This document shows, in pieces, positions 3,963 to 64,000 of a stretch of DNA of 64,000 bases. The notes beneath the pieces were generated by a model. That model searched no databases. It was not told the DNA's origin and saw only the letters and a program-made list of their open reading frames with translations. The translations under genes and the position numbers were made by a program. The stretch is from Moniliella sp. 'wahieum' (Eukaryota). Numbering within the stretch: the first letter of the stretch is position 1; each line of letters starts with the position of its first letter. The stretch lies in assembly GCA_003971905.1 (NCBI GenBank), contig RSEE01000008.1, positions 558,001 through 622,000 on the forward strand, given 5' to 3'.

Positions 3963-4248
3963 GGCGGTGGCGGTAGATGCAGATGGGAGGGAGGGCCCAA
4001 GCGCCGGTAGGCTTCTGATTACGGCTTCCGCATTATGTGCGTTGCGCCCCAGCCAGACGCTGGCGACTGGGATTCGGTGCAAGTGTTGGAGCGGCCGGGG
4101 CGGCTGGGCCTGAAGCTTGAAGCTTGAAGCGTTGAAATGTGAAATGTGAAACGTGAACAATCACACGTCCTTTAATTTTTGCAAGCAAGAAGTTCTTCGC
4201 AGTGCCCCCACCACCGCCGTTGCTACCACGAGTGGCGTCGACGAGAAG

Positions 4249-7200
4249 ATGCTGGGCATTGCTCTCCGTGCTGCCCGAAGTCGGCGCCTCGCAGTGGCTC
4301 CTGCTGCAGTTCGCCCACAGGGAATTGCCGCGTTCCATGCATCGGCTGCGCTGGCCGAGAAGGCCCGCCTCTCCCGCCGCGGCTTCACCATCCCCGGCCG
4401 CAGCAGCAGCCTCAAGCTCAGCCGCGCTAAAATCACGCCCGATCTCAACCTGCGCGTCCCCCCGTCCCAGCGAGAGAAGCGCGAGCGTGCCAGTCTCTCG
4501 GCAGTGCGCGAGCACTACTCAATCGGCCTCGGCAAGCTGTTGGCCCCCGTTCTCGACTCGACCACTACGCAAGGCGAGCGGCAGCGGGCTATGTTCCACG
4601 CAGCTTCCTTTTTTACCAACTCGACCCCTCGTGTGATCAAATTGTCCGACCCTGCGCTGTGGAACCAGATGCTGACTGCACTGGTGGCTGTCGGAGAGCG
4701 GCGGCACCCGATGAAACTCTTTGCCGTCATGAAGCGTAACGGCATCTACCCCGACATGGCCACCTTCACTTCTGTTTTTCGGTCCATGCGCCAGGAACTG
4801 CTACGCCTCGGGCGCGCTAGCGCTCCTAGCAACCCAGAAAATGAAGATAACCTTCCGGTTCCTTCCCATTCTGCTCCCAATTGGGAAAAGACGTTGGATC
4901 AGCGAGGCCCCGATGCCCAGCAGTGGATGCCTTCGTCAATGATCATCCAACACCAGTACTTTGTCGCCGCCTTGGAAAAGTTTCGCATCGCTGTGCTAGA
5001 TTTTTATCGCATGTCTCGCGGAGAGACAGTCGCCTCGACGGGACTGCCCTCACCAGTGCATTACAAGAACCAGCGTCGCAGCACCGGAAAGCACAATGCT
5101 ATGTTCAATGCCCCTCGGTCCCAACTGCAATATACCTAACGATGACCCTTCCGATGCAGCCTATGAGGCTGCGGCTTCCCGCGTCTCACGTCAATCCCAC
5201 GAGCGCTCCCGTGCCATGGCAAGGAACAAGACGTCCTCCCTTGGCCGGAGAGAAGCCGAGGTGCCCAACTTTCTTCCTGGGAGAGGTCAGGACCGTGCTC
5301 TCCTCTCTCCCAAGAATGGTCATCTCGTTTCTGTGAACTCAGACGAGACCCCGGATGATACCGAGTTGGCGGCGATGGACCCGGAATTCGAGGAGTACTC
5401 GGAAGAAATGGCGGCGGCCCAGCGTAGGTTGGACGCAAAAAGGACGATCCAAGCACGCTCCCTGCCACATCGGTTCAAGCCCTGGTTGAGCGGCAGCACA
5501 GCGAGCTGGACGAGGAGAGCCGTGGACATTTGACGCCATGGCAACGCATGTACTTGACCAAACGAAAAGCCTTGCTCCGCGCTGCGGAGCAATGGGACGA
5601 GTTGGCGAACGCTTACTCGTTGGCCATCGGACTGGGATCGATGCTCGGGCGACCCAATCAAGCCTGGGCAATGTACAGCAACATTTCCCTTCCCGGTGCT
5701 CGACGCGGACTTCCATGGCCTAGTGGTCTCATCTTTTACACTGTCCTGCGTCACTTGACTCCTGCCCCAAACGAGGCGCGTGACCTTGCTCGAGCTGAAC
5801 GCGCGGATCTTGCCGCCAAAGAGAAGAACCAAGGTCTGCGTCCGGACGAAATCATCTCCAACTTTGATCCCTACGCTGCCCTGGGGCCCAATGCACTGGA
5901 CAAGAGCTTGACGGCCCACGATGCGGCGAGGGTCACTCTCGAAATGTTGACGGGGGGATCGGGAGCCGGGCTAACGCCTACGGGCCGACCGTTTGAGGCC
6001 GACTCGAGCGATGGGAAAGAGATGCTGCTGCAGTGGCGGCCAAAGCTTCGCGCTGTGGTGGAGGACTGGCTGACCGTCCTTTACAAAACGGCTCGCACGG
6101 TGGATCCACCCGAAAAGTTCCTCAACTCAGTTTGGATGGACGCCCATGCTTTGAACCAAGTGGTGCATACTTTGACTCTAGTACGTTTCCCCTCCTCCTT
6201 TCTGATCCAACACGAGCTAACCTATTCTATATGCAGATGAATGACGAAAAGTCGGCCACTCTCGCGCTGCGCTTAGTGGCGGGCATGTTCAAGGTGTACG
6301 GCAACCTTCCTGTGCCTGTAAAGGAAGAACCACAGCCAGCCAAGCCAGACCCCGTCTCTGTTTCAGAGCTAGCCCCTGTTCCAGAGGGGACCTGGGATGC
6401 GCTCGCGGCAGCCGGTTTGGTCGAGCCCCCTCGTTTGAGATGGATCAAGAGGAGCGTCTTTCCCCGCGCAGCAGTCAGGAAGAAAAAGCGGACAACCCTT
6501 GGCTCACACCAACGGATATGGCAGAACAACGCAAGGCGGACCTGATGACCGAGGAGAGTGACTTTCCTGATGAGGTAGTGCGGGACCAAGACGCCAAGAA
6601 GTCGATTTGCCATGACAAGTGGCATGGAGCAACCGCCTTCACTGGCACAGAAGAGTTCGTCACCTCCATGTGATGCGCCCGACCCAGATGAGGATAAGCT
6701 GTGGAAAAAGGGCCGCGGCAGGTACCAAAAGGGGTTCAAGTCGGGTGGGAAGCACCGCTCTTTGGACCCATTCAAGCGGCGCGGCTACGTGCCCGAGGGA
6801 CAGGAGCTTGATCGCTTCCTTACGGGACCTCTCTTTGCTGAAAAGGGGGATGCGTTACCTGTGTACACGCGGCGGAGTGAGTTGCGGATGGAGCTGCGGA
6901 ACCCCAAGAACAAAGCTATGCTTCACCAGTTGCACACCAACATTATGGTCTGCAGCCACATTGTGGGTCGACCTGAGTTGTACTCCTGGTTGGCTGACCA
7001 CATGGGTGCTGCCGCTCCTAAGACACCGGAGGTGGATCTGCCGTCGATGACGCGCGGTATGTCGTCGGCACGGAGAAGGAAGGTGGCGGCCAAGCTGCAC
7101 AAGTACCCCTTCGGTCGGCCACCTACAATTCTTCCGTTCGACATGCGTCCATCACCCTTTGGACGGACACGGCACTGCGTACCCCTCCTGCTCGCGATGG

Positions 7201-7532
7201 TCAATTGGTTGCCCCAGGCTGGAACGAGTCGGGCGGGGAAAAGTCTCGGAACCGGCACAGGACCTTGGCCAAGGCCAACAGGGGTAAACTCCAGGGACGC
7301 TCTCTCGGCAACGGCAGGCTGGGTCACACAAGTGGGGAGGACGAGCTCAAGTCGGAATTTGCTCGGTTCAGTCAAACCCAGGAGGGAGAACCAGAGGTAT
7401 CGCCCGAGGACACGGCCTGGTCCACGCAACGCACCTGGGGTTGACTCTTCTTCGCAGTCTTCGCGAAACTCGTTCCCTGGCCCAGCCAAGTTTGCCCCGT
7501 CCAAGTTTGCCCCGCCCAGGGGTCGTTCTTGA
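4249..7532 (+). CDS. Large probable mitochondrial protein with a pentatricopeptide-like motif (frameshifted in this assembly)
   Basis: Arg/Ala-rich N-terminus (MLGIALRAARSRRLAV...AFHASA) and a PPR-like WNQMLTALVAVGERRHPMKLFAVMKRNGIYPDMATFTSVF. Consecutive + ORFs overlap in different frames, and there is a canonical intron at ~6181-6236. Confidence 0.6.
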
Positions 7533-12198: not shown

Positions 12199-12317
12199 TT
12201 TCATTCAGATACTAATCGATCGTATTGGAATCTGAGTCGGCTAGGCTATGACAAGGGTGGTGCGGCAGTGCCTGGAATGTGAAGTTCAGAAAGATATGCA
12301 TAGTGGGCAAGTTCATC

Positions 12318-15443: not shown

Positions 15444-16081
15444 GGAGGAGGGCGGGGTGAAGGGCAGAGGAGGGATGGCCAGACGGGGGGGGTATAGGGA
15501 GACGGTGGAAGAAGGGCAGGTGTGAGGCGTGAGGCTCCGGTCAGGTGGCGGGAGCGCGGACATGCGCAGCCAGAAGCGTGGCGTGCGGTTTCGGACCTTC
15601 GTTTTCACACCCGGTCTCATTCCCTGGTCGGGTTGGCTCAATTCGGGCGTACCACGCCGGGGACAAGGCCTAAGGGTGACCGGTGATTAGCGCTGTGACA
15701 TGTGACATGTGATGAGGTGGTTTGCATTAGGTCAGCAGCAAGGCATCACCGGTCCCTAAGCTGGATGACATCATCGATCATCCTGGGGCATCGTAGGCCA
15801 TGGTCACAGCCTGGGACAGCTTGCCTGTTGCATGCATTACACCGGCTGTCGGAGCGGAGCGGCCGGACCGGTGTGACGATGATCACCGACCAGCCAGCCG
15901 GGCTTAAAGCCGGATGCATGACGCCGCAAGGATGGTTGGGGCAAGCTAGTCGCTATCCATGTCCATCAGCGTTTGTGGGGCAGCTGCTCCACTTTAATAC
16001 CCTCAGTGTTGCGCCTCATTCATGCACACACACCACCAGCCTCTCGCATCCTCCCACCACCACTCTCCGGTCTCCTTTGCC

Positions 16082-20124: not shown

Positions 20125-21239
20125 GATACAGATATATGGGACGCGGTGTCGGTGGTTGTACAGTTGAAAAAGAAGGGAGGAGAGAAGGCGGGGAGGGGGG
20201 GGGGTAGAAGCGGCGGCGGTGGATAGCAGCCCGAGTGGTAGCAGCAATCGTCGTCACAGAAGGTACGGACGACCCACTGTGCAAGAAAGAGATGGGATGG
20301 AGAGAGGACACCGGATGGATTCCATCATCTTATACCATCCACACAACACGACGTACCACCACTACTGCGCCACATCCCTCCATGCATCGACCCTGGTCAT
20401 CCGTGTGTGATAGCGCCCATTCACCAGCTCGTTGATTGTAAAGGTGCAGTGGCACTGCCGTGGCGCTTTCGGTGGCGCTGGTGGGGTCTTCGCACCCGGC
20501 GGGTGGGGCTCCAACCGCACGGGGGCAGTGCTCAGCCCTGTCTCCGCGGAACAGGATTTATATTTTGTAGCCGAGTTCCTCAGACGTGTCAATCATACTC
20601 TTCCGTTTGTGGAGCTAAGCGCTAAGCACTGCGAAGCCCGATGCAAATAGTATGTGCTGCGGCCTGCTGTGGCAGAGGCTGTGGCTGCTCCACCACACGT
20701 CTCCGCCTTTAAGCCCAGGGGCGATCCTCAGGCCTACGGCCTCAAGCTGAGGCCTCACCGGCACCGGGCCATAGCCGCACAGACGACCTGATTGTGGACG
20801 AGAGGAACGAAGGACAGTGCTGTATTGCTGGCGCTTATTTCTTGGCGCTTTTTTGTGATGTGCATCAACGTATCAACGTTGTTGAACGTTGAGCGCGTTG
20901 AGCCATGATCAAGTGGGTTACTGCTAAGCGTTAACATCAACAGTATATATAACTGCTGTTACATCATTCGGACAACCCTAGCCTCTGTTCTCCGCGCTAT
21001 GAAGACCTAAGGGCCTAAGATCTAATAACTTCTCGCGGGCGCAGTTCGATGTCATGATCGACATGATCAGCGGAGTGACGCCCACTTTTAAAACGTTGGG
21101 CTCTTATTGGGCTTACGCGCTTACGCGTTACGCGTATTCTACGCGCTATATCAATAGCCTCTGTTGCTGTAGCCAGACGCATCCTATTGCACACAGCTTT
21201 TTTATGAATTTCGGAACAGCAGCGGATATGAGAGAATCG

Positions 21240-21673
21240 GAGACCTGAAGTCCGGATGGTCATCGAGGGTGATGCAATCACACGGATGGTGGTGGTGGTC
21301 TATGTCATAGTTTGGCTGATCTCGCCCCCATTTTCAATTTCTTCGTCTCGAGCGTCTCGCTCCTTCCCTGTTTCTTCCACTTCGCACCATGTCAACTGTT
21401 CTTGCTTTTCCCCACGAACGATTGCTACACCCCTTGGCCTAGTCCGATCCTGGTCTCCCTCGCCTTAGCCCCGACTGTGACAGTCTAAGCCAGCCAGCAA
21501 CCCCTTACAGAGGAACATCAAGCTTCAAGTCGCGAGTCGCTACCACGGTCTAGTTTAAACTGCGACGGAACAATAAGGAAAAACAGGAGAAAGAAGACAA
21601 CGGAACTCCTATAGGCATGAGTGCATGAGGAGGAACCGAAGGGACGTTGGACAAAGCGTGAACCACCCGGTGG
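21240..21673 (+). repeat. Dispersed repeat family A, copy 1 (interrupted by a solo LTR)
   Basis: Shares GAGACCTG-AGTCC-GATGGTC-GAGGGTGATGCAATC and ACAGAGGAACATCAAGC...GAAGGGAC-TTGG-CAAAGC with 23951-24177 (reverse) and 33755-33977. Confidence 0.8.
21303..21482. mobile_element. Solo LTR (180 bp), copy 1
   Basis: Begins TGTCATAG and ends CTGTGACA (TG...CA with short inverted termini). Flanked by a perfect 5-bp duplication GTCTA (21298-21302 and 21483-21487). Other family A copies show the empty site with one GTCTA. Confidence 0.85.
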
Positions 21674-22009
21674 GTCATCAACATATACCCCAATCAGTAC
21701 AATCGGTACTCAGTACTTGGTACTCAATCTCTCGTACCCCCTCGGGGTTGCTAAAACCCACCACATTCGCTCGGAATAGGATGAATGTTTTGCAGTAGAG
21801 CGTTACGCCTTGGGCTTCACCGGTCATCCCTTTTCACTTTTAACTAGTTACTGGTCATGATGTATGGCCAGCCGAGACGAACAAATAGCCTGTCTCTTTC
21901 TTGGGCGAGCTCAAGGTGTGGATGGATGTACGGATAGAAGAGGACAAGCATCTTGCTGTGGTACGGTTTACTCTTGCTGTTATGTTTTTCATTTTGGCGA
22001 AAATATCAA

Positions 22010-22107
22010 GTTCCATTAGCTCAGTTGGCTAGAGCGTCCGACTGTTACACAGACGGCCTGTGCCCTATGGCATCGGGAGGTCGTTGGTTCGAGCCCAACA
22101 TGGAACG
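22010..22107 (+). tRNA. tRNA-Asn(GTT) with a ~24-nt intron
   Basis: Acceptor GTTCCAT/ATGGAAC, A-box TAGCTCAGTTGG, anticodon arm TCCGA-CTGTTA[intron 22048-22071]A-TCGGG, T-arm GTTGG-TTCGAGC-CCAAC and a downstream T run. Confidence 0.93.
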
Positions 22108-22654
22108 TTCTTTTTGCTCCTTAACCAATTTTTCTTCGCTCCTTTTTCACTGCACACTCTTCGCTACGAGAATGGGTCGCTCAGCGGGTTGAGGCTCAAC
22201 AAGCATTTTGCGAACGCCTTGTTGACACCATTCATCATCGCATCATCAGGGTAATCCTGAACCTATTCGATCTAACATCGATCAAGCTAACGATATGTAT
22301 AGGGTAGAGGTTCACCATGATCAGGAGCTATGTAGGAAGGAGCTATGTATAACGGCGTGGCCTCCCGAGCGATGACAACCTTGATTGACGGGGCGGAGAG
22401 GGGGCCAGTCCTCTGGCTCGTTGGAATAGGGCTAGAGGCGTAGGCCCGAAGCGAGAGCTTCGTACCTTGGACGCATTCACTATGGGGGGCCCTACACTTT
22501 CCGGATCCCCTTCTCACCAAACTAAACGGCATCCATCATCGCCATTTCTGAATTTCGATCCACTTGAAGGCACTGGGCTGGCGCCTCGCATAGGCCTTCA
22601 CTACAAGGTGGTGAAACGAAGTTGAGAAGTGGGATGGACCATAACAAGCGGAAT

Positions 22655-23193: not shown

Positions 23194-23615
23194 CTCTGGC
23201 GGGCGTAAATGTCAGCATTCATAGTGCAACGCGATAGAGTACGCGTGTTGGCTGCAAGTGTAGCTAGGTGTAGCTGCCTTATTCCCCTGTACACGAGAGA
23301 GACATACTTTACCAGCAAGAGGTCGGAGTGGTGGTGAAGAGATGAGCCGGGTCGGCTTCTTGTAGAAGGAAATGGGACCGGGACAAACCTAACCCCTAGC
23401 CCACCCTTCTCAACCCTAGGGGAAGCTTGGTAAGCAACCCAACCCTACTCCTCAACGCCCGTGCACCAGCCACTCCTGCGTCACGTAGTGACGTGTGACA
23501 TGTGACATGCGACAGTCACTGGAGCCACTAGTCACTAGTCACGTGAAGCTTGAAGAGCTTGAAGCTTGACTAGTTTTGCGCGCCTGGTCTTGCGGCATTA
23601 TCAAAAACCGCCTCT

Positions 23616-23799
23616 TGTCACAGTCGGGGCTAAGGCGAGGGAGACCAGAATCGGACTAGGCCAAGCAGTGTAGCAATCGTTCGTGGGGAAGAAGCAAGAA
23701 CAGTTGACATGGTGCGAAGTGGAAGAAACAGGGAAGGAGCGAGACGCTCGAGACGAAGAAATTGAAAATGGGGGCGAGATCAGTTAAACTATTACGACA
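23616..23799. mobile_element. Solo LTR, copy 2 (inverted relative to 21303-21482)
   Basis: Near-identical reverse complement of copy 1 (TGTCACAGTCGGGGCTAAGGCGAGG...GGGGCGAGATCAG...GACA), flanked by CCTCT/CCTCC (4/5 TSD match). Confidence 0.8.
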
Positions 23800-24177: not shown

Positions 24178-24654
24178 ATTGTGCGTGCTTCAATTACCTC
24201 TGTTTTCCAATACATACCACCTGTGTATTACGTCTATTAGCAAACTCCCTCGATCCAATATCGTCAGGTATTCCGTACGCTTTGGGGGTTCCTCCCCCAC
24301 CTCGTTTCTGTCGCCTTCCTCCCCAGCAGAGGAGGGATTGAACTTTATGCCAGGAATGGAATGCATATGAGCTTTTGACGACCGGCTAATTCTGCCCTGA
24401 CTCTCTGATCGTGAGGAGTGTACCCCGTACTCATTTGAGTAATGCTACACCAATGGCACTAGGCTTTTTTTGCGACAACAGATGGTGAGGTGGAACGAGG
24501 TTCCAAAGGAGCATCCGAAATAAATACATGTCGGTGTTTGCTGAGCTAGTGAAGGTGTTTGGGACATAGTGTGGTGCAGGGGAGTACCGACGACCCTCGT
24601 GCTGCAAAGATCCTTTGATAGTGTTTATCCTATGCCCATCTATATAGATATCGC

Positions 24655-24988: not shown

Positions 24989-26814
24989 TGGTCGATATCG
25001 CTTGAATGCATTTTTTGGCTTGTGTCCGCACCCAATCCAAAAGTTGGGCCCGTTTTGCACGAGGCTGTGCGAGAACCAGAGCTGACCTGCTGTGGTGACT
25101 CCACACTGGCCTTTTGGTCTGTCGGAGCAAATAAGCACAGCACACGCCGGATGAGCTCGATGATCGATGACCGCCGAGACGCAGCTCGAGAGCAAGCCGG
25201 GTATATAGGCGCAGCGCTTTCTTTTTGTCCCTTAATCTTGAGCACTCTCTCTGAGTAAAAGAGGATATAATGACGCGGGGTTTTGGCGCTGGTAAGTAAA
25301 AAGTGCTTTAGTTGAGCGCTATATAGTGGGGATGAGTTCGATGAGTCCAGCGTGAGGATGTGCATAGCATTGCCGCCCCCACGCGCCCAATCCAATCAAG
25401 AAGTTGCTCGCCCAACAGATGATACTCGCCATCAGACCAGAGCCCCTCAGGGCCTCAGGCCTCACCCTCACCCGGGGAAGAGAGATATGACGTCATACTT
25501 CTGAATACATATGCCGCTCGTGCGCTGAGCGTAATTTATAGTGGGTGCAGTTCTGATGGAGCCCTTTTCTTAGTGTGACCAGGTGCTTCCGACGGTTCGG
25601 GGCGGGCGGAAGCGCCAAACGTGTGTTGTACGATAGGCGATAGGCATAGGCCATGCTGGGGCGGGCCCACCAGTTATAAAACGGTGTGACTTGGCCAAAC
25701 CAGATGGAAGGTGATGCAGACGATGATGCCTGTGATGCACTTGATGCTGCGGATGATTCCGATGATTAGGATGATTTGATAGGCAAAACACGTTACAGCC
25801 TGGCCCCGATGGGGCCATCGCGGGCCCGGCCATCCGCCGCCAGACTATCGTCGTGCCGAGAGGGCGCAAGGATGAGAAGCTCTTCAACCGATAGCAATAT
25901 CAATTGGCGAGGCTGTTCAGCGGTTGAGAGTTGAGATGCACCGTCGAACTTTATGGCCTGAGGCCCAGGGCTATCGGCGCGGGAGGGAGTGGCGGGAGTT
26001 TAGATTTGGGGATCGAATTGGGCTGGGCTGCACACTCGCTGCGCCGAGACAAGTCTTCTTCCGGGCGCCGTCGAGAGGATGGGGAAGACCAGCACCCCAC
26101 ATTAACCTGCCACCCTGCTGACGCGTGACGGCGCTACCCAGTCCATCTCAGATCTCACAACCAGACGTCGGGGCAGCGGGGATGCGTGATGGGGGGGTGC
26201 TGAGCCCAGGCACGGGGCGAGTGGCTTGGCTGTGGGTGTGGTTGTGCCCTGTGCCCTCCAGCAGCAGGCCGCGTACATCACGCGTCAAATGTCGCGTTGA
26301 ACGTTGAGATTGGGATCTGAGATCTTACACTGCCGCCCGCCCTTGCAGCTGCGTGCGCTTGTCGGCGCAGGCGGGCAGTGTACAGTGGCCCCACGCTGGT
26401 TGTGCGCTCGCCTGCGCACGGGCAGAGGGCGGCACCACAGCGCAGACCGAGCAAGACGGAGCAGCACACAGCACGGCGCCTGCCACGGCCAGACGCGGCC
26501 GCTTCCGCGGGCGGCGTGAGCGTGACGCGTGACGCGTGACACTGTCAGGTGACGCTCATGCGTCGGCGTGTTCCTTGGGCGTGGCGGCGGATTTGGTTGC
26601 TGCGGCGGTTGGTATTTGTGGTTAGTATGTTCGTCCTCGCCGCCGCCGCTGCACCACCCCCGTGCGCTTTTTTTTTGCCGCCGCCACCGCCAGCGCTGAG
26701 CGGGAGGCTGTCCTCGCCACCACCGCCCCGCCTGCCGCCTGCCCCCCCTCCGCCTCGCCATGACAGCCGTGTCCCGCTGCGCCTAGCCCTCCAGCCGTGC
26801 CCGCCGCCCACAAC

Positions 26815-39659: not shown

Positions 39660-42600
39660 TCAGCGATCGACAATCGCCGATCATCGATCATCGACCATCA
39701 TCCATCCATCATCGATCATCCTCATGCATCCTCGATCACCCATCGTGCATCAGCGGCAGGCGCCCCGGCCAGTGCACTGGTGCAGTTGCCACCCGCCAGA
39801 GAATGCACCGGGTACGCCACACCACGCCACGCCCCTCCACGCCACGCCACACCCCCCACCCATCGCACACCGCCGGTCGCACACCCACCGTCCCAGCGTG
39901 TACCCTGGCGCACCACGGGTGGGCCGCGTGCGCTGGCCTACCCTGGCCAACCCACGCCTACCCACCCCTACCCTGCTAACTGGAACGCCACGTAGGCCCT
40001 CTTCTTGCAGCTTGCAGGCGGCCTAGCATAGATCATCCATGCTCCGCCGCGCGTCCGTGTCAGCCGTTCCTTGCCTGCCCTGTGGGACGAAGCGCGAGGG
40101 CGCTCCTGCAGGTTCCTGCCTCTTTTACTGCCTGGGGTGCAGTTTGAACGCTCCTCATGCATCGATTGTCGATCATCCATCATCGCACAGTTTGTGAGCC
40201 GCATTTCCGGGCGCATGGTGGCTTGCAGCTGGCAGGACTTGGGCCATGGCGTCAGTCTTCCAGCTTGAGCCGTCTGGGTTGCATCCTGGTAAGTATGCCG
40301 ATCAGCATGCCGTGGATACAGTCAGCGTCGTGCGGAGGCACCCAGCAAGCGCCAAAAGCGCGTAGGCTAACCGCTAAGCGCCTGAGCCTCAGGCCTCGCA
40401 CACCATGCCGGACTAGGCCCTACTACCTACTAGGCATCCAGCTCATTCACACGCCGCCAGAGATCTGATATCTGAGGACGAGCGTGGAGGAGCGCGGAGC
40501 CTGGAGGAGGCTTCAACTACCTTAAACCCTGCCGCTGCCTGCCCTCGACACGTCCAACATAACTTTTGAAAACATCCAATATCCAGAGCTTCCGCCTTCC
40601 ACGTCTTCCCCTCCCAGGCCCCAAAACTCACACTCATGTCACACTCACCGCCACATATCATGTATCACATGATACGCCACATGTCACACGCCAATCACCG
40701 TGTATCACGCTTTGGTTACCCTACTCGCAGCTTCTCGCGGTTGCCAGGTATTGCACAATGCTCTCACAATTCGCGCAGTTCGTTGTTGTGCACACTCTCC
40801 AGGACGATGATGTTCGGCCGTTCTTTGTTATCTTGGCATCGGCCTATCTCGCGCCTGTCTCTTCCCTCAGGGCATCAGCGCCTGCAGTGCGCCAGCGGCT
40901 CTTTTCTCCGGCGTCGCTTTTTTCGGACGGCGCTTTCATCCGCCGCGCGTCTATATCCCCCCGTAGACCATGCGTCCCAAACAGCGTCACAGTCTCTCTC
41001 AACTGGCCGCCATGCAATCTTCCCACAGCTGCGGGAATCCTTTCAACAGCTCGCGGGTCCACGTGATGACGAGTTACCTAGTTACTAATTACTAGTTTAC
41101 TACTAACCAACTCAGCCGCGCACTCACGGTACTCACGTGTCACATGTCACGCCCTGTCACAACTACCACGCTCTCCTGGTCTGGCGTGGTTTCTCTCCCG
41201 CTCGACGCGTTACGCGTTGCGCGTTAGGCGTTATTGGACCCTAGGTGTTAAGCGTTTTTACCACATAACCCGTTTCCTTTTTTCAATGTTCCTGGGCACT
41301 ATCGTATAGTGTTGGATCTTCTGGCAGGCGTCCATCGCTATTGCGTGTCGCCACACCTCAGACCTCACGCCAGTCACGCAGTACTAGTGCAGATAGTTTT
41401 TACTGATACCGAGTATCGAGTGAAGTCTGAGGTCTGTGGCAAGATCCAATCTTCGTCTCGCGCACTAGGCCTTTTCAGACAGCGCCGCAACAAAGCAACC
41501 ATATACCCTAGGCTCCGCCGTCTTGGTCGCTGGGCCAGTGCTCAGCGCTCAACCGCTGCCGCGGTGCCGGGCCCACGTAGCCTGGCAAAATTTGACTTGT
41601 CGAATGGGCGGGTGGGTCGCGTGGCGGTGGCGGACTGTGGGGTGTGGCTACGGTGTGCGCGGCGCCCAGGTGCGCTATAGTAGGTGCACTCTGGTGGTGC
41701 GCTTCGTGGCCGGTGGCCCCCAATTCAACATGGCTCCACGGCCCCCGTTGAAGGCTACCGTACACGTACGCACATGGGCGAAGTGCTAACGCGTTGCACG
41801 TTACACGCTAAGTACGTTAATCGTTAAACCCGCGTCTACTACACGGTATGCATGGTATGCACAGTGCATCATGTGCATCATGCATCATGCATCATGCATC
41901 AGGTCCCGGGCTGAGACCTGAGCCTCAGGTGCCACACAACATACATCAGATAGGACTGGTGACATCACAGGTGGCCATGCGATTGCATACCGTAGAATCG
42001 GGCCGACCGGAGCATTAGGCCGCGGTGGGCCACCGAGTCGTGGTGTTGTAGCGTACTGGGGCGTGGCGTCGCCCGGTGCGTGGCAGAGCAGGGGCTGCGC
42101 GAGAGGGCGGAGCGTGACGCACGGAGGGAGTGTGGCCTATCACGCAGGGCCGTCGGGACTGATCAACTTGACAGATCTGTGGCTGCCGGGTGCGCTTTTT
42201 TGCTCCGCACCGGAGTATAGGATGCGTGCTACAGCGAGTGACGAGCTAGTGACTACTGACGTGGAATGTCACATGTCACATGTCACATGTCACATATCAC
42301 AAGCCACATGCCACCTGTCACGTCTCAGGAGATTCGCGTCACGGAGACATGTTGAATTGGAGCCACATCTGTGATGCCTGTGACATATGAATTCCAGAGC
42401 CACATGTGATGGTGGTAGGTATATAGCAGCCCCTAGTTACTAGTTCGGCCGCATCTTCGTGTCAAGGATGGTGTGGGATGGCGGATGGCGAGGCAGGTAG
42501 GGTGTAGCATATCCAGCAAATGCTGCGAGCCCTCGCCTGTCGTCGCTCCCCGCAGTGCGGAGTGCTCGTGGTGGGTGCAGGTACTGCACCCCCCTTTTCA

Positions 42601-45055
42601 TCCTGTCCTACACAATTTTCTCTGGGAGCTCAGGCTGAGCAGCGCTCCGCCTGAGCGCCGCGCATCACGTGCCACAATGAATCGCACGCGTCATCGTCGG
42701 CATAATTGATCCTTCTTTGCTCTCCAAGAAACCCATTCTCGATTCTCCATTCTTCCAACCTCCGTCTTTCTGCGCGGAGCACGCAGGCACCGCGGCAAGA
42801 AGGCGGGCAGTGTGCGAGGCATTGCATGCTCCCCCACGTCCGAGCCATAATAGCTGGTCACCGGTCACTAGGATCTGTATCCGCGCATCCGACATCATGT
42901 TGCATCATGCATCAGGCCTCAGGCCTCAGCTGAGGCCTCATGTGCATCGGGCCCAGGTCGATCCCAACATCAGGCCATCAGGCCTATCAGGCCCTGCCCA
43001 GGCTAGGCCTGAGGCCCCTGAGGCCCGAGGCCGGATGCAGGCCTGATGCGCCTGATGCACCTGGTGCCTGGGTCTGAGGGGCCTGAGTGAGGGATGCATG
43101 ATGGAGGGTCGTTAATCGATAATCACTCAATTGCTGACTGTACCGTCGAGTATTGTAGTGGCGTCCTGGTCCATCCGGCTATGGACACCGCATGGATGCT
43201 AAAGCGTTTAGAACAGCAGCGCAGGCGATCGATTGCGGGTGAGATGGGCATTGATGGTAGGAAGTAGGACGAGGGCTACAGGAGAAGGTTTGGCTTATGC
43301 GGGTACGCGCGCCGGAGCCCGCGGAGCCTCGGGGCTAGTGAGGCCAGGCTGGAAGTGCACCGCGATCGGTGAGGCTAGTCACCGTGGCAACAGTATACCA
43401 AGTACTGAGATACTCAGACTGAGTTGCCATTAATGGACTGAGCGAGTACTGGGTGCCTGAGATATGTCAGCCGGAGGTGCGAGGACAGGACACATACCGC
43501 ATGGGCGCGCTGCCCTGACTCATACACTCTTGATTAATCGTAACGCGTGTAGCGCGTAATCGACGTAAGATTGGTGTTGATCGAGTTGATCGGTTGAGCG
43601 GTGAGCGGTGAGCGCGTGAGCGACAGATGATCGATCGGTGGAATTAGCGATCCCGCCTTCTTGGGCGATCATATGGATCCGGCCTCTGAAGAGCTGGAAG
43701 CTTCAAAGCCCAGAGGCCCCCACGCCCCCAGTCCCTCAAGGGCATCAGGCCCTCAGGGGTCTCAGGGTGCTCACGCGCTACGAGCGATCCTCGTCAGCTT
43801 AACCACGGCGAAAACCGTACTCTACCCTACTCTATCGGCCAGCCCCCGCACAAGAGAGCCCATACTACATACATACTCATCCATATCTCAGATCTCACAT
43901 CTCGCAACCCCGATAGGTACCTTTTAATAGAGCGCGTCACGCCTCATCAGGGCCTCAGGGCCTTTTAGCTGCTAAGGCCCTAAAGGCCTAGGGGGCTTAA
44001 TTCAGACGTAACGCGTAACGCATACTAAGGGCCGTAAGGCGTAAGGCATAAGGGATTCTCAGCACGCTCAGCGCTGCTCGCAACGCTCACAGGGTCACAT
44101 GTCACTTGTCAGGAGGCCACAGGAGAGGACGTCTCTTGGCCTTCGTCGGTTGCCGGGCCTCTGGCCCTCAGGGCCTCAGGTCCTTCTCGATTGTTCGACG
44201 GCCCTCCATGTCAGGGCTTCCTGTTGTCAGGGCCTTCGGGTATGCCAGGTATCCCCTCGGGCGCGTTAGGAGGGGGCGTTAGGGAGGCCTCGCGCGCCTC
44301 AGGGCCTCAAAAAGTGGGAGCGTCAGACTTGAGTACGTTGAGTCCCTTAGGCCTCGGGGGCTGCCGGGACGGTGGGACCTGTCCATATATGTCAGCGCGT
44401 CAGCCCATGGCCAGGGAGGGCATATTGGAAGGAATGAACCGGCAGGACCCGGGCTTGAGCTATTACCAGCGCCACTCCGCCAGTGTGGGCGACAGGGGAG
44501 GGAAGGGTAGAGCTGGCAGACGATGGAATATGGAGGGCAAAAGGGAGAAGGAAAAAGACCGAGTGTCGCGGCGGCCTCAGTCAGTGGTGTCTGTCTCGCT
44601 TTTGTCCATTCTGTGGCGCAGCTCTAGCAAAGTTTTTAGTGCTGAGAGCGTGCGCTCTAAGATTTAACGCAAGGCTTAGCGCTTAGCAAGCTCAAGTGGC
44701 GCCGAGTAGCACTTGCGCCTTAAAGCTTAGTATGTGATGTTTAGCCTTGGTACTTATTGTACGATGAAGCTTATTGGAGCTTGACTAGCTCGACGCTTGA
44801 GAGCGCAAAGCCTATGGGACTGGGGCCTCAGGCCCTTGAAGCCATAGAAGCTTGAAGCTCGAAGCTTGCTTTTGGGGTCTGAGGTTCTGAGTTCTGTGGC
44901 GGATGCATGATGTATACATGGCGCAGGTGAGATCGACGGCAAAACTGGCTGGCGTCGGTACTTGAAGCTCCAAGCTCCAAGCTCCAAAAGCTCGAAGCTC
45001 CAAGCTCCAAGCCTGCTGTTCACAAGCGCAAAGCTCTAATCTACAAAGCTCCAAC
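39660..45055. repeat. Gene-free region dense in 7-bp-period palindromic micro-arrays
   Basis: (TGCATCA)4 at 41874-41901, (ATGTCAC)4 at 42266-42293, TCAGGCCTCAGGCCTCA at 42912-42928, ACGCGTTACGCGTT at 41205-41218, ATCATCGATCATCGA at 39680-39694, AAGCTCC/AAGCTTG runs at 44847-45012. Confidence 0.8.
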
Positions 45056-57200: not shown

Positions 57201-60200
57201 GCGCGGGAAGCCATCCTGGCAGCCGAAGCGGTTGAAGCCGAGGTGGCGGTCTTGCTCACGCTCTGCTCGGCGGAGACCGACATTTCGCATGGCGCGGCGC
57301 AGCTGGCGCGGCTCATGGTGGACATTCACGATGCGCACGGAACGCCGCTGCCGGCAGCGTGGCGGTCGTTTTATCTCCATGCCGAAAAAGTTTCGTCGCC
57401 CTTCGCTGGCCGGGTGGCGCAGCAGCGCACGCTCCGTCAAGCCTTGGCCGAGGTCTCTGAGGTGGGCGGCCTGGGACCGACGCAAGGTGCTCGGGGCGCC
57501 TGGACCGAGGCGTACCGTCGTTGGGGTACCCTAACCCAAATTGTTGCCCGGCCCATGGCAGCCGACATGAGCGACACGGCGCAGGACAAGGCTGCGTACT
57601 GGCACAACCTCACTGCGTTCTTGGCCAGCTTGGGCGGCGCCGTGTCGTTGCCGCACCCGGAAGAGAAGGCGCTCGCGCTTGTCTCGCCTAAATTGCCCGG
57701 CGTCGGAGACGAGGCTGACGCGGCCACGCTCGTCGACACGTATGTGCAGGAAATGGTCGACTTGCTTGTCAGCGACTCGCTCTGGGTGCGCGACAAGGTC
57801 AAGTCGACACTAGGCCAGGACTTGGGCGTAAAGCTAGCGGCGCTGCTGCTTAAGCAGGTGCATATTGTGCTCTCCGAGTTCTTTGATAAGCACACGGGTC
57901 TTCCACGTCCGTCGGACATGTTTACGGTGTTCATTGAACAGTCCATTGCCGTGGTGGAGGCCATGTTGGCGCGGATGCCACTGCGGGTCGCGCCGCAGGA
58001 AGAAGGCGAGGAAGCTGAAGAAGGCGAAGGTCCGCTGCGGGTCGACATTGGGTCGCTGATGGTATTGTATGTCGAGTACGCCAATGCGTTGGGCAAAAAG
58101 GAGCAGCCGCTGCGGATCAAGTTGGCAGTGGCGCAGTTGTGCGCTACGCTGCTGAAGCACAAGGCATCGTTTGCCTTTAGCAACGAGCTGCCGGTGCGCA
58201 ACCGCTTGTTCCAGGCGCTGGTCACCTGGACGTCCGAGTCGGTACGTTTTTCCCCCGGGATCGATGTGTGCGTGGACGTGTGACTGACCCAAGGAACGAA
58301 GATGGACGAGGGCGGCACGGGTAAGCTGCCCAGCCGGAGCATTCAGCGCGAGCTCGATGTGGCCTGCTTGCGGACCGTGTCAATGCTGCTAGAGAACCTG
58401 CCTTTGATTCTGGCCGACGACGCACTGGTGCTGGACGACAAAGTCGAGTGGGCCAAGTCGCGCCAGTTCAGCATGTACTTCAACTACTTCCTCAAGGTGT
58501 TCAATCGTGCCAAGGACGCCGAGGCGAGCGCGGCTGCGCGCGCGATCGCCGCCAGTGGCGTGTCGGGCCCCGTTGCCGAAGCGCGGCGCGCGCAAGGCGC
58601 GGTGTTGGTCAACGAGAGAGGTACTGCAAGAGTCGGCGATCCAGGCCCTGAGTAACTTGTTGGCGGCCAACATCGATTCGGGCTTGCAACACTCTCTCCC
58701 GCTCGCCTACAAGGACGATCTGCGGATCCGGACTGTCTTTATGCAGATCATGACCAATGTCTTGCGCCAGGGAGCCCAGTTTGACGACCTGGACCGCCTC
58801 AACTCGACGCGGCAACAGCAAAACCAACTCGCCGAGCTGATCGCTGACCCGGGCATGCAGCTCGCCCTCTCCATCTGCCAGATTTGCCGCGGATTTGAGG
58901 CGGAGAGCTTGGACTGTGTCCTGCTCTCTCTTTTCGATTCACGTGGGGAGGTGCTTCGCTTCCTGGGATTGGCGTTGCGGGAAGAGATTGAGCGCACGCC
59001 GTCTGAGGAGATGGTGTTCCGGACCAACTCCTTCCGCACACGCTTGCTTAGCGTGTATGCGCGCATGCACGGTTACGAGTATCTCCGCGCCACCGTTGGC
59101 CCTCTGATCATCGACTTTGCTGCGCGGGCTCAGGGCGTGTCGTTTGAGATTGACCCTGCCAAGATCGACGCATCCGAGGTCGGCGGGCAAGCGGCGGCCG
59201 AGGCCATCTTGGCCGCGAACCAGGCGCGCTTGGAGGAGATGACGCAGGCGTTCATTGACGCCATCTGCTCGTCGGCGGCCAAGTTACCGCCGGTGCTGGG
59301 CGAGTTGTGCCGGCAGATTCGTGGTCTGATGGACAACAAGTTCCCCGAGGCGCGGTACCAAGGTGTGGGAGGCTTCATGTTCCTCCGCTTCATTTCGCCT
59401 GCCATTGTGGCTCCGCAGCTTATCGACCTTAACTTGGCACCGGGAGCGCGGGAGATGCGGCGCGGGGGCTGTTGCTCGTGTCAAAGATCTTGCAGACGCT
59501 GGCGTCCAACACGGTGCTCGCAACCCACAAGGAGGGCTTCATGACTCGCATGAACGATTTCCTCAAACGCAATGTGTGGAAGGTGACACGTTTCCTGGAC
59601 CAGGTGAGCGACGTGAAACCACTCGAACAGACTTTGACGACGGTGCCCGACGGTGCCGCCTCCAGTGGCGCTGCCACGGCCGCCGGCGCAACGGCCGCAG
59701 CCGGGGCGCAGAACTCCATCTTTGCGGTGGGCTACCAGGTTACCGAGTCGGATGAGCATACGTTGCACAAGTTCCTGTTTGACAATGTGGACAAGCTAGG
59801 CAAGGACTTGCTGGCACGCTCGGCTGCTGCGCGCGCCGAGGGGAACACTGCCGTCGCCGACGACGCAAAGCGAGCGTACGATGGATGTGTGTGGTGCTCG
59901 CCGAGATGGGCGACTACGAGTTGGACATCAATGCGCTTGGCCTCGGCACGGGCCCGGGCGGCAGACCGGACGGAGCGGCGTACCGTGAGTTTATGCGGCG
60001 CAATGCGGGCGTCATGTCGACACCTCGGCGTTTACCAACATCCTGCGTGTTGGCCCGCCAGGAGCGAGTGGGCGGCCGGTGCTGTATTACTCTGTGGCGG
60101 CGGTGCGTGCAGCGACGGTGGACTTTGAGGCTCTGATCGTGTATGCGATGCAGTTGCTCCAGCACTTCCTCCACCGCGAGTTTGACCTGTTGGTCGATAT

Positions 60201-63200
60201 GACGTGCATGACAGCCGAGAACTGGATCCCGCACCAATGGATGCTCTTTTGGAGCACGCTCATGCCCTCTGACATTCGCGAGAATCTGCGCACCGTGATT
60301 GTGCTCAACGCCAACATTGCTGCCCGCGAGTGCATCTACCCCTACTTCCAGCATGATCCCGAGAAGGCTGGTCCGGCCCCTCCCGACAGCATCTTTGCCT
60401 TCCTCAGCGGCAAGAGCGTCAACTTTGTCCACACCCTCGACGAGCTCCAGCGGTTCATCCCCCGTCGTGACATTGCTCTCGCTCCGGCCACGAGCGCCAT
60501 CCTCCACTCCCCTGTCGAGACGTCCATTGCGACTGCCCCTGATTGCGCACTACCGTGCCCTCGTGCCCGTGGCGTTCAAGACGAGTGGCGAGTATCTGCA
60601 GATCACTTCCCTCAAACCGCAGGAGATGTGGGTTGGTATGGCGGCCGCGACGAATGAGGTGATCCACTTTGCCGACATTGACGACATTTGCCCTGCTTCG
60701 GCCCGTGGGGAGGAGACCACTTTCCTGATCACCTGCAAAGCAGGCCAGACCGTCTTCCTCTTCCACTCCCAGGACCGCACGGAGATTGTGCAGGCGCTTC
60801 GTCAGGCCAAGGCCCGCATTACCCGCGTCGCCCCAGCCCCTGGCGCTGCCACGGCAGAGCGGACACTGATGCCCAGCGACGTGCCGGGCACACTGCTCAA
60901 TATGGCCCTGCTCAACCTCGGCAGCGGAGACTATGCGCTGCGGGTGAGCGCGTACAACCTCCTCTTCGCCTTGTCTACCTCGTTCAGCTTCACTGCTTCC
61001 CACGCACGCCGCCGGCTGCTCTCAGTCCGTGGTCTGGGGCTGCCTGCCACCACTGCCAGCTTTGCTGCCGAACTCAGCCGCGACTTTGCCACCTCGGCAC
61101 CCACCGTCACGCTCGAGTTCCTCGTGTCCTTCTTTGAGGGCTTTGATGTCTCGACCGCAGACCAGAAGGCCGCGGCACTGCAGTACATGGTGCCCTGGTT
61201 GACCAACCTCGCTCTCTTCACTCACTCGAGTCGCGCCCAGCAAGCTGAATACACTAAGCGTATCAAGGTGATCCTCTCCCACCTGGTCAAGATCACGGTT
61301 CAAGAGCCCGATGTGTACTCGCTGATGCAGCGTTTGGTCTGGGCACATGTCACCAAGTTGGATCCCCTCCTGCCCATATTACTGGACGTGTTTGTCGAGG
61401 CGGCGATTGATGCTGGCATCGAGACTGCCGCGTTTGAGGCGGTGGCTGAGACGCTGGCCTCCTTTGCATCCTTCAACATGCGTGGCAAGCTGCTTGCCCG
61501 TCTACGGCGGACAATCGCCAAGACAAGTAAGGCGCTTGGTGCCAACCCCTATGCCGATGCCCAGGTGTGGCTGGAGCTCGCCACGCTGGTCCGCTTCAAT
61601 GTGGTGCTCTCTTTCACCTCGCGGGCTGAGCTGATGCTATTCTTGCCCGAATCGATCCACGTTCTTCTTCTCCTGGCCGGGACCGGACCAGACGTGATGC
61701 GCCGTGGGACGCGCACTGCATTGGTCAACCTGGCTCACTCGCTGTGTACTGACGACTCTCGGCATGCACGTGGGGGCGAGAGCGGGCTGGGTGCTGGGCC
61801 GACGGACCCGGTAGGCGGTGCACCGGTCCCGCTGACGGCCAGCAAACTGCGCAGTGCTCTGCTCTTCTTTGCCAGCAACGACACGTCCCCTCTTTGGCCT
61901 GCCCAAGGAGGAAGGCGACGATTGCCCCGACCCCTTTACCGGGACCATGGTGGTGGATACCTCGGAGCCAACGATTGAGCAGATTGAGCAGCTTTCGTCT
62001 CGCGTCTTGCCCTTGTTGGACCTTGCTGCGCCCAGCACCGACACGGCCAACGCGTGGCGCGCTCGCCTGGTGAGCCTCGTGACCAGTACCGCGTTCCAGT
62101 ACAACCCGCACGTTCAGTCTCGCGCCTTTGTCTTGCTCGGTGCCCTGGCCCAGGGCGAGATCGACGACGATCTCATGTACCAGATCTTGGTTTCGCTCCG
62201 TGGCGCCATGCTCGAATGGGGTGCCAATGCCAACCCGGGACCTCTGGCTTCGATTGTGACCTGTCTGGCTAAGGTTGTCCGCGCCCTCCCACCCCAGAGC
62301 AAGTACCTGCCTCAGATGGCCTGGGTGGCCATTGCGATGCTCGAGACGAGTGTGCCTGAGATCTTCAGTGCGGCTGCGCAGCTGCTCAATGCAGCGCTGT
62401 CCACCCTGGCGGCCGTGCAATTGCCCCTCGCGGCTGGCCTGGACCCGCTCACGTTCCTCCTCGAGGCCCGCAACGAGTTCCGCGATGCCTCGTGCCGTCT
62501 CGACGATGAAGCCGGGGTGGACTTTGAGATTGACTTTGGCTTTGCGCTGGCGGCACTGCTCGTGCGTGGTCTGCGGGACAGCACAACACGGGCAACGACG
62601 GTGGGTGGAGGTGCTTCTGTGCCTACTCCGCGTCTCCTCGACTAATGAGAAGGAGAACGGTGAGGCCGGGCGAGGCAGCAAAGTGTCACCGGCCGCGGTG
62701 GGCTTGTTCGTCGCTTTACTGCCCTCAGCTACCAGTGAGAGCGGACTGGCATCACTCTCCTCGACTGGGATTGCCAGTAATGTGGTGGAGGCAGCGGTCA
62801 AGGCGCGCAGGGAAGGGGAATGGTCTCTCGCCTCTTTGCTCTTGCCAGTCGACAATAAGCAAGCGCTCCTGGTCACTGCACTGCTGGCAGCATTGCTTGA
62901 CCACGCTCAGGACGAGGATGAAAAGGTGCTGCTTTACACGCTGCTGCGCGACATGGCGGTGGCCAAGCCCGCCATCTTGTCTATCATGTACGTTTGTCTT
63001 CCCGTCTGCGTTACATTTTTTTTCGCTCAGCTTTTACTGACTGTCCGGACTGAACGGGTACGAGTGGGTTGCTGCTGGAATGCAGACCGAAATTGAGTCG
63101 TCGACGAACGAACTGATTTTGGACGCAGTGCAGGCCATTACGTCGGTGGCGGTGTGCGAGCCGGTGGTGGCCGCCCAGGCGGCGGAGACGGCACGGCGCG

Positions 63201-63361
63201 GTGGTCTCGGTGCTTACCTCGATGAAGCTGGGTTTGCCTCCTTCCTTGAGTGTGGTGCGTTCAGCGCGGCGCCAGAGTTGGACGAGACTCAGCGTGTGCT
63301 GGTCGCTCGGTTGGCTGCCGCGTTGCTAGCGGGCGCCATCGATGCGGGGGCGCATGATTAA
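54262..63361 (+). CDS. Neurofibromin / Ira1-Ira2-like Ras GTPase-activating protein
   Basis: LFYLSSSNWGVVFNRL, ALSNLLAANIDSGL, RasGAP VFRTNS...GGFMFLRFISPAIVAP...LVSKILQTLAS, a Sec14/PH-like region, SDVPGTLLNMALLNL..D.ALRVSAYNLL, AFQYNPHVQSRAFVLLG. Introns at ~54622-54683, ~58242-58301 and ~62988-63085; multiple frameshifts. Confidence 0.92.
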
Positions 63362-64000
63362 GTCATTTTTTGCATGGCAACGCTCCCTCTCTCAAACCTC
63401 TCACCAAGTGACTCCTTGCCTGGGCTCGATCCATCATTATCCACATGATATCCCCCTCTCACGCTACAGCTGGGCTGGGCCTACTTTGCCACTGCTCCGA
63501 GTGCTGCAGCTGGTTGGCCCGCCTCTGTGCCTTTGTTCCCTAGTTCGCCCGCGTATGTTTTTACCTACGATGGCACCCTGGTTTCGCGACATGTTTCCTC
63601 TTCTTTGCTCTATCTTTCCTGATTTTTTGGCTCTTTGAATGGATTGAATGTTCCGTGGGTTTGGAGTAGTTGAACAGATCGCACGTTCAACGTTCAACCA
63701 ACGAATGTAATAACAGCGTATAACCGGTAGCCCGTTCAACTGGCACCATGTGGGCATGTTGTGACGTGGAGATGTGAGCTTCGGAACAAGACAGCAGTTG
63801 TGTGCTGCATCGACACTACTAGGCCACTGCTTTATTCTGGCTCCTGCGCCTTCCCTTCGTAACGTTCTGGTCTTCCCTTAACCAATCTTCACGTCATGAA
63901 CCGGCACCGCTGCCACACTCGATACTTTGTCGGGGTTACCGACCAGATCCCTAGCTCTTTCAGTGGGTCGGGGGTCGGATCTCTGATTGCGAACAGGTGC

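Follow-up and report, generated by a model that had tools for sequence, protein, structure and literature searches.

What process fills the intergenic DNA of Moniliella sp. 'wahieum' with short arrays whose geometry is constant while their sequence is not? In the window, by which we mean the whole 64,000-nt stretch analyzed here, TNA trinucleotides alternate with palindromic 4-mers. The original prediction offered three origins for this pattern: footprints of DNA transposons with a 3-bp TNA duplication that leave two terminal bases per end, iterative template switching, or a protein reading the TNA-N4-TNA spacing at promoters or origins. It also guessed at a smut fungus, which is correct at the subphylum level (Ustilaginomycotina).

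Heptamer arrays in the window and beyond

The array motifs are present as quoted in 14 of 15 cases, and TCAGTACT is found at 21710, within the run quoted for 21694-21726. They exceed a Markov background, peak at one spacing, and avoid coding DNA. The window holds 49 motifs made of a TNA, a palindromic 4-mer, and the same TNA, grouped into 41 runs, versus simulated means of 1.7 to 4.1 and a maximum of 8 (30 simulations per order, orders 1, 2, 3, and 5). Among spacers of 0 to 12 nt, TNA..TNA pairs were most numerous at 4 nt (103 versus 27 to 67 elsewhere), and 49 of these 103 pairs had a palindromic spacer. None of the 49 motifs overlapped the 21,054 bases of long ORFs marked as coding, where 633 of the 2,364 TNA sites of the window are located. 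Inverted-center forms made up 8 of 57 window motifs.

Beyond the window, one array 17-mer had 670 genome-wide matches and its reversed control had 0. Across 414 kb we counted 294 array runs, ca. 0.7 per kb, which extrapolates to roughly 49,000 in the whole genome. Neighboring motifs are clustered, with 41 of 154 distances being 100 bp or less. No arrays of the four pure-AT palindromes had been seen at first, but all four occur among the 294 runs (TTAA 10, AATT 4, TATA 2, and ATAT 1), and an AATT motif is present in the window at 53618.

Indels between homeologs and the structure of the products

A second copy of the region, ca. 3% diverged (3.0% between subgenomes), exists in this genome, and indels between the two homeologs follow a rule: a site ab-TNA-cd in one copy corresponds to ab-TNA-b'a'-ab-TNA-cd, or to its mirror form, in the other, with siblings of 8 to 10 bp. 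We found 150 indels of 7 to 11 bp, of which 125 passed the flank filter; purely tandem duplications accounted for 22 of these, 12 lying at TNA sites and likewise consistent with the model, and 103 were non-tandem. Exact fits to the rule, read as presence or absence between the two homeologs, amounted to 16 of the 103 (nine of 7 bp, four of 8 bp, two of 9 bp, and one of 10 bp), whereas the control centers ANT, CNG, and GNC gave 0 of 103 each. Some homeolog indels are short inverted duplications. The window contains the following features, in which C23 denotes the homeologous contig.

4111..4130, no strand: TGA/AGCT array, then a decayed continuation to 4157
15675..15686, plus strand: GG.TGA.CC.GG.TGA, a 7-bp product; the C23 homeolog is without it (single GG.TGA.TT)
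15694..15712, no strand: TGA/CATG array with three TNA
20614..21135, no strand: product cluster, with 7-bp products at 20614, 20881, 21015, and 21121, 8-bp siblings at 20863, 21006, and 21111, and 9-bp siblings at 20888 and 21053
21518..21826, no strand: 7-bp products at 21518 and 21817, 8-bp sibling at 21616, and decayed TCA/GTAC run at 21691-21725
23494..23569, no strand: compound cluster upstream of a cyclophilin-like gene (named by eye), built of CATG, CTAG, and AGCT units; the 9-bp unit at ca. 23546 is not alike in both homeologs
25157..26540, no strand: products at 25157, 25451, 26119, 26145, 26278, 26295, and 26520, and 9-bp sibling at 25331; at 25157 the homeologs appear by eye to bear different products of one GA.TGA.CC site
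39678..39738, no strand: TCA/TCGA array plus decayed copies
41874..41901, no strand: (TGCATCA)4 array; immediately upstream there is a 16-bp indel versus the homeolog
42266..42321, no strand: longest array of the window, TCA/CATG, ca. 8 units, decaying
42856..43124, no strand: dense compound cluster of CCGG, TGCA, GGCC, and TCGA units, with an inverted-center form at 42931
43760..43766, plus strand: empty site TC.TCA.GG; exact 9-bp product in the C23 homeolog
43885..43897, plus strand: TC.TCA.GA.TC.TCA, a 7-bp product; missing from C23
45309..45315, plus strand: empty site TG.TCA.CT; exact 7-bp product in the C23 homeolog
63683..63698, no strand: TCA/ACGT array, with one more 9-bp unit in C23

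Standing products were counted over 414 kb. The two mirror forms of the 7-bp product numbered 93 and 106 at TNA versus 2 to 5 at control centers, with 17 and 17 siblings of 9 bp and 14 and 23 of 8 bp, in classes that partly overlap. The pattern is wider than the 7-bp period reported for the arrays, with 8- and 9-bp siblings accompanying the 7-bp units. The palindrome derives from 2 nt in 199 products, versus 20, 2, 3, and 0 for 1, 3, 4, and 5 nt. A plain 7-bp duplication at TNA (22 cases) was no commoner than at control centers (43 to 94). Retroelements provide polarity: one LINE-like copy among 57 aligned pieces has an exact 9-bp product (its homeolog has one change), and one LTR copy carries an exact 7-bp product that is missing from its reference copy. 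Several other copy-specific retroelement indels fit the rule only with 1 to 2 mismatches and were left out of the counts.

In 207 of the 249 two-TNA runs the repeat continues into one flank for 2 bases or more, whereas in 12 it extends into neither flank at all. The palindromic 4-mer is therefore copied from the flank and not from transposon ends, which rules out an element-terminus footprint with a 3-bp duplication; the idea of a transposon footprint holds in kind, whereas its geometry gives way to a 7-bp nnTNAnn duplication. Tc1/mariner scars retain element termini, and PIF/Harbinger elements target TNA and duplicate 3 bp. Both resemble the present case in leaving a cut-and-paste scar between duplicated target bases. 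However, here the insert follows the flank, unlike in Tc1/mariner, and the duplication is of 7 bp, unlike in PIF/Harbinger, whose domain PF13359 (DDE_Tnp_4) had 0 matches in the genome (the control was found in 1 of 14).

A family of elements with TNA-centered duplications

We scanned 899 kb for inverted repeats with duplications, leaving TNA unspecified. A single 7-bp case emerged, a 4,968-bp element bordered by GA.TCA.TG. The corresponding TIR family, with ends CTCACTGA and an EnSpm/CMC-like transposase remnant, is flanked by nnTNAnn in 12 of 12 independent sites (TNA background, 0.037 per site), and the five intact elements with matching flanks all have an exact 7-bp target duplication. Five full-length copies of ca. 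5 kb are 99.7 to 99.9% alike (4 to 14 substitutions in about 4.3 kb), versus the 3.0% divergence between subgenomes, and two older element ends are common to homeologous contigs. A short copy of 378 bp with its 7-bp duplication is located on C20 at 546811-547188. Of 31 one-mismatch TIR hits, 19 were fetched, of which 3 proved to be real ends and 16 matched by chance. Element ends numbered ca. 17, versus the roughly 49,000 extrapolated runs. Two element flanks already bear a scar beside the insertion, exact in one case and with a single mismatch in the other. At the one donor site examined, the C8 homeolog of the C23 element copy is without 5.5 kb, including both flanks. Also on C8, an extra CT between flank and TIR looks like a P-nucleotide, but was not counted because of dinucleotide assembly errors. 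The high-copy insertions of the window were rejected as scar sources: one, of 180 bp, terminates in TG..CA within a 5-bp duplication, and another, of 340 bp, resembles a LINE end.

All copies have CT..AG termini, with CACTG starting at base 3. A match between terminal dinucleotides and 4-mers, as originally proposed, is contradicted by this family, since an element starting with CT in every copy cannot yield 16 palindromes. By hand counts, CA lies next to TNA on one strand in 9 of 12 element sites versus 4 of 16 polymorphic events, and the middle base is C or G in 12 of 12 element sites, versus a TAA or TTA center in 47 of the 294 runs. The family thus favors a narrower set of flanks than the scars show and is probably not their sole source.

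The remnant, which had no Pfam match, matches protein P0121 (E 7e-10 to 7e-9), and P0121 in turn has a match (E 6e-14) to a gene on C34 that carries the Tnp2 domain (PF02992); the direct match between remnant and C34 gene has an E of 8e-5. An H-x3-H, corresponding to the H(3-4)H motif of the CMCT clade, is aligned across the three. The C(2)C motif and a complete DDE triad were not located in the remnant, whose reading frames are interrupted by small indels in all five copies. The assembly carries many 1- to 2-bp indel errors, and since the copies show 17 to 34 small gaps beside their few substitutions, many of these frameshifts probably reflect faulty assembly. Atlas neighbors of P0121 are mostly unnamed clusters, the Pfam-bearing ones being DUF4218 (20%), Transposase_21 (12%), and Plavaka (11%). 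A word-index search with the remnant among longer proteins retrieved none, and a full search one unnamed protein. Within the genome itself, PF02992 identified two genes, on C17 and C34, each found once and not once per subgenome; no TIR with duplication was detected in the 10 kb around each, nor in 3 kb more on C34. PF13960 and PF18759 had no match in the genome, and neither had the hAT transposase domain PF05699, a weak result as no control matched.

In the sections of Kojima 2025 (PMC12730594) that treat them, CMCT elements (EnSpm/CACTA, Mirage, Chapaev, Transib, Plavaka, ESTA, as well as Lanisha) mostly have CA..TG termini and 2- to 5-bp duplications. The family here is like them in its remnant apparently related to Tnp2-type transposases, its H(3)H motif, its subterminal repeats, and CACTG at TIR positions 3 to 7, but unlike them in terminating with CT..AG and in duplicating 7 bp centered on TNA. 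For the latter reasons we file it as CMC-like and not as a member of CMCT or EnSpm/CACTA. The same source describes hAT7 of rust fungi, fungal TIR elements with 7-bp duplications and a hAT transposase (PMC12730594); the duplication length is shared, whereas the remnant resembles CMC-type proteins, and one hAT7 consensus begins with CAACG.

Probable excision scars and competing explanations

We consider it quite probable that the arrays have built up from scars left on excision by DNA transposons of the cut-and-paste type, which duplicate a 7-bp TNA-centered target (ab-TNA-cd). The family with ends CTCACTGA would be one source of the scars, and the others were probably made by related or extinct families of broader flank preference. 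With somewhat less assurance, we favor an undescribed CMC/EnSpm-like lineage (CT..AG ends, 7-bp nnTNAnn target) that would excise through RAG-like flank hairpins and would have left tens of thousands of stereotyped P-nucleotide scars, making excision, and not slippage, the main birth route of heptamer microsatellites.

In sequence, the products equal a duplicated 7-bp nnTNAnn target to which an opened hairpin would have added 2-nt P-nucleotides. Insertion would duplicate the 7-mer, as seen for the family in this genome, and excision would turn both flanks into hairpins closed where the element had begun, a chemistry documented for hAT, Transib, RAG, and Muta1 (PMC5499845). A host nuclease would then cut these hairpins at a distance of 2 nt from the tip, so that the palindromes b'a'ab and cdd'c' would remain as 4-nt overhangs. 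The length of the scar palindrome matches the cut position of Pso2/SNM1, which in the S. cerevisiae experiments described with a 3-nt-loop hairpin prefers to cut two nucleotides from the apex (PMC3299998). End joining would mostly keep one overhang and lose the other, giving the observed ab-TNA-b'a'ab-TNA-cd, or retain 1 to 3 bases of the other, giving the observed 8- to 10-bp products; an 11-bp product keeping both was found 0 times in 414 kb. Re-insertion at the same site and slippage, suggested by footprints beside insertions and by tandem indels, would lengthen arrays and mix palindromes, while selection would purge scars from coding DNA. Several points count against this model: end joining is usually less uniform in outcome than the scars here, the one donor site examined is lost in a larger deletion, element ends are far fewer than array runs, and the family has narrower flanks than the scars.

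P-nucleotide footprints are left by hAT Ac/Ds, Hermes, Transib, the MULE Muta1, and RAG coding joints, systems in which, as far as the cited account goes, a host nuclease opens the hairpin and end joining seals the break (PMC5499845), and a similar division of labor is proposed here. The scars are like those footprints in joining the target duplication to the reverse complement of the flank, but differ in their one dominant product, even 2-nt palindrome, reused sites, and density of ca. 0.7 runs per kb. Our literature searches found no paper on excision footprints building genome-wide heptamer arrays and none on flank-hairpin chemistry for CACTA-type enzymes. If the excision model is right, tandem repeats can be born without a slippage seed, through repeated landing and leaving of transposons, and every scar is a new and more symmetric target, so that the process feeds itself. 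It would also provide indirect evidence for RAG/Transib-type flank hairpins in an EnSpm/CMC-like enzyme, widen the known duplication lengths of the clade from 2 to 5 bp to 7 bp, and make past transposon activity mappable where elements have vanished. The genome would then be a dense natural record of fungal hairpin opening and end joining, with thousands of repair outcomes to read.

The same products could come from the transposase, or a domesticated relative, making 7-nt staggered cuts at nnTNAnn in abortive target reactions that are repaired by hairpin or fold-back fill-in with no full cycle, and acting as a genome-wide site-preferring mutator. Scars exceeding surviving element ends more than a thousandfold, their clustering, their broader flanks than those of surviving copies, and the two Tnp2 genes lacking detected ends (C17 and C34) speak for such an enzyme. 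We nevertheless regard it as unlikely, because a hairpin formed by the flank at the border of an element would be the one natural origin of an even palindrome placed precisely where a complete 7-bp duplication ends, and because one match per Tnp2 gene, and not per subgenome, is unlike domestication. Moreover, the 215 kb with the 16 new scars show retroelement insertion differences in numbers of a similar order (at least 6 of 13 junctions, by eye), and transposition at ordinary rates may therefore be enough. Polymerase fold-back or template switching, in which the nascent strand loops on TNA, copies two bases back, and resumes five upstream, would need no transposon; on paper it delivers a 7-bp product, and inverted-center forms and short inverted duplications among homeolog indels agree with it. 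We find it less likely again, as it leaves unexplained the palindrome of exactly 2 nt, the 8- to 10-bp siblings that keep the b'a'ab end, and a TIR family whose duplication equals the 7-mer deduced from the arrays.

Set against these, the slightest chance of all belongs to ordinary slippage starting at chance seeds, or to an artifact of the assembly. Pure tandem indels, over half of them at model-fitting TNA sites, and the many small indel errors of the assembly can be cited for it, but the two inverted bases of the 16 non-tandem events and the choice of TNA are beyond slippage, and assembly errors would also hit coding DNA and would not recur in both homeologous contigs, in which 94 of 179 motif sites are intact. 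The non-tandem indels thus refute slippage as the origin, and we retain it as a secondary lengthening step under the excision model. Scarcely more credible is a DNA-binding protein reading TNA-N4-TNA at promoters or origins, with selection maintaining the lattice. The motifs are indeed clustered and non-coding. However, dependence of the 4-mer on its flank is not expected from binding. Across 179 sites the homeologs differ in the motif bases at 0.168 per base, roughly double the 0.075 of nearby flanks, and 112 of 177 motifs fall within the fifth of the alignment where divergence is highest. The protein-read lattice of the original prediction is not borne out by these values, and, if the arrays are scars, motif finders will call them promoter motifs.

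Heptamer arrays across the intergenic DNA

The original prediction described short intergenic arrays with a 7-bp period, built from TNA and varied palindromic 4-mers, and 14 of the 15 motifs quoted for it were found at exactly the positions given. We counted 49 motifs (TNA, a palindromic 4-mer and the same TNA) in the window, against 1.7 to 4.1 in sequence simulated from a Markov background, and none of the 49 fell within 21 kb of ORFs that contain 27% of the window's TNA sites; this absence of the arrays from coding DNA was observed directly. The pattern occurs throughout the genome: one 17-mer had 670 matches (control, 0), and a 414-kb sample contained 294 runs of heptamer units. This sample joins the window with 16 stretches near it and with 19 of the 20 taken from contigs C1 to C3, the twentieth having been dropped because it was picked near a motif match. 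All 16 palindromes occur in this sample, so the lack of AT-only cores noted at first is a local effect. The proposal that a protein reads the motifs as a lattice is unlikely, since they are less conserved between homeologs than their flanks.

Homeologous copies and the product rule

The best named protein matches were to Ustilaginomycotina (52-56% identity). In the 69.5-Mb assembly the window region has a collinear second copy on contig C23, which differs from the window's contig, C8, by 6,422 substitutions in 214,843 aligned columns (subgenomes ca. 3% apart). The assembly also has many 1- to 2-bp indel errors that frameshift genes. The length distribution of indels between C8 and C23 declines smoothly apart from an excess of 7-bp events (63, against 35 of 6 bp and 29 of 8 bp).

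At polymorphic sites one copy carries a single ab-TNA-cd, while the other has ab-TNA-b'a'-ab-TNA-cd or its mirror (primes denote complements). In the model tested, the 7-mer ab-TNA-cd stands at both ends, palindromic overhangs of 4 nt (cdd'c' or b'a'ab) are optional at each, and one overhang must be kept whole. Among the 150 C8/C23 indels of 7 to 11 bp, 125 were well flanked and 22 of these were pure tandem duplications; the model was matched exactly at TNA by 16 of the 103 others, and by none at ANT, CNG or GNC centres. Four of the 16 lie inside the window, including the site at 15677 quoted in the original prediction. In the standing sequence of the 414-kb sample, asymmetric products with a 2-nt palindrome numbered 199 at TNA versus 6 to 9 at control centres, and products with 3- or 4-nt palindromes numbered 2 or 3. 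The 8- and 9-bp sibling products were enriched, the 11-bp form was not found there, and the plain 7-bp duplication at TNA was not enriched over control centres. Of 249 two-unit runs, 207 have a repeat that continues two or more bases into a flank, so it is the flank, rather than the ends of an element, that supplies the 4-mer. Of the suggested transposon footprints, scars of the excision kind are supported, but not a 4-mer left by the element termini. Although the homeolog events lack an outgroup, insertion is indicated as the polarity by two exact events, each specific to one copy of a multi-copy repeat.

A TIR transposon family with a TNA-centred duplication

If the product model is right, there should be a transposon that duplicates a 7-bp nnTNAnn target. 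Fetched DNA totalling 899 kb was scanned for inverted repeats with direct repeats on either side, with no TNA condition; the single 7-bp case was a 4,968-bp element (C23:154552-159519) with TIRs of ca. 78 bp starting CTCACTGA, subterminal repeats and the duplication GA.TCA.TG. The family comprises five copies of ca. 5 kb, a derivative of 378 bp and several further ends, single or older; none of these lies within the window. All 12 independent flanks are nnTNAnn, exact 7-bp duplications were observed at five elements (C20, C23, C29, C34 and C35), the two flanks of the C11 copy are different nnTNAnn sequences, and an older scar adjoins two of the insertions. The long copies differ by 4 to 14 substitutions in 4.3 kb, yet by 17 to 34 small gaps, and hence they are young, and errors of assembly probably account for many of their frameshifts. 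Since homeologous contigs have two older ends in common, the family predates the subgenome split. A solo-LTR-like piece inside one 5-kb element (positions 6295-6556 of the fetched sequence L034) has an extra 7 bp that most other copies of this LTR lack and that fits the rule with two mismatches.

The remnant protein of the element had no Pfam match. A full protein search with it found one unnamed 462-aa protein (P0121), which matched all five 5-kb copies at E 7e-10 to 7e-9 and, at E 6e-14, a PF02992-bearing gene on C34; an H-x3-H motif is common to P0121, the remnant and that gene. Few clusters among the Atlas neighbours of P0121 bear a Pfam, and in these only a minority of members have DUF4218, Transposase_21 or Plavaka. 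In the available text of Kojima 2025 (PMC12730594), the CMCT clade, to which Transib belongs, is defined by motifs such as H-x3-H, with CA..TG termini in most cases and duplications of 2 to 5 bp. The family has the H-x3-H motif but differs in termini and duplication length from that description, and we therefore term it CMC-like rather than a CMCT member. Two Tnp2 (PF02992) genes, each matched once, lie at C17:557095-557541 and C34:514908-515195, the latter ca. 9 kb from a 5-kb copy; no ends were found near either.

Probable origin of the scars, and other features

Excision would leave hairpins on the flanks, as the available text of PMC5499845 describes for hAT, Transib, RAG and Muta1. These may be opened two nucleotides from the apex, as by Pso2, which yeast requires for repair of Ac/Ds excision (available text of PMC3299998), and end joining would retain one overhang, giving the products seen directly. 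A symmetric product would create fresh TNA sites for further rounds from the left or right flank, and thus compound arrays with different palindromes, of which C8:648020 is an example; site reuse and slippage at palindromic sites were both observed.

No excision of the 5-kb family was caught at the C8 homeolog of the C23 copy. CA adjoins TNA at 9 of 12 family sites versus 4 of 16 new scars, and the middle base of TNA at family sites is always C or G; given this narrower preference, other or extinct families are needed, and none was found in ca. 1 Mb searched and six profile or protein queries. Furthermore, there are ca. 17 family ends versus ca. 49,000 runs genome-wide (by extrapolation), the scar outcome is unusual in its uniformity, and plain duplications do not exceed controls. 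All this keeps two alternatives alive. A transposase might cut unoccupied nnTNAnn targets with no insert-and-leave cycle, which we consider improbable, or a polymerase might switch template by folding back at TNA with no transposon involved, which seems slightly less probable still. Set against this shortage of elements, however, the count of 16 new scars in 215 kb is similar in magnitude to that of retroelement insertion differences in the same stretch. In the literature searched, mostly outside subscription papers, we found no description of heptamer scar arrays; P-nucleotide footprints as such are known. What appears to be new is their accumulation across the genome as arrays of heptamers, and likewise a CMC-like family that duplicates 7 bp centred on TNA.

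Other features of the window are as follows.
21303-21482: solo-LTR-like insertion, 180 bp, with 5-bp duplication GTCTA
ca. 22012-22110: intron-containing tRNA-like gene with GTT anticodon, recognized by eye, with no ARAGORN report
ca. 23617-23799: second, independent 180-bp insertion, in opposite orientation
24652-24993: 340-bp insertion with at least 40 copies at 94-100%, lacking in C23; probably the terminal part of a LINE-like element
31088-31185: tRNA-Val gene, within a stretch of ca. 320 bp missing from C23
36965-37028: perfect array of (GGACAAG)9, to which the TNA rule does not apply; shorter by 35 bp in the homeolog
44965-45012: heptamer array with CCA replacing TCA
55953-63096: long RasGAP-domain gene, presumably neurofibromin/Ira-like, split by introns or frameshifts

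Other CCA-centred runs were also seen (10 palindromic cases in the window), and such arrays probably arose from scars by a T-to-C change that slippage then spread. Both 180-bp insertions have TG..CA ends and are absent from C23; the genome has at least 40 copies of the element, some of them in pairs 5.5 kb apart. In L072 (C190:507-810), and also at C145:104380-104681, a solo LTR is fused with 120 bp of its own sequence in inverted orientation, which gives a fold-back of 304 bp with a 5-bp duplication.
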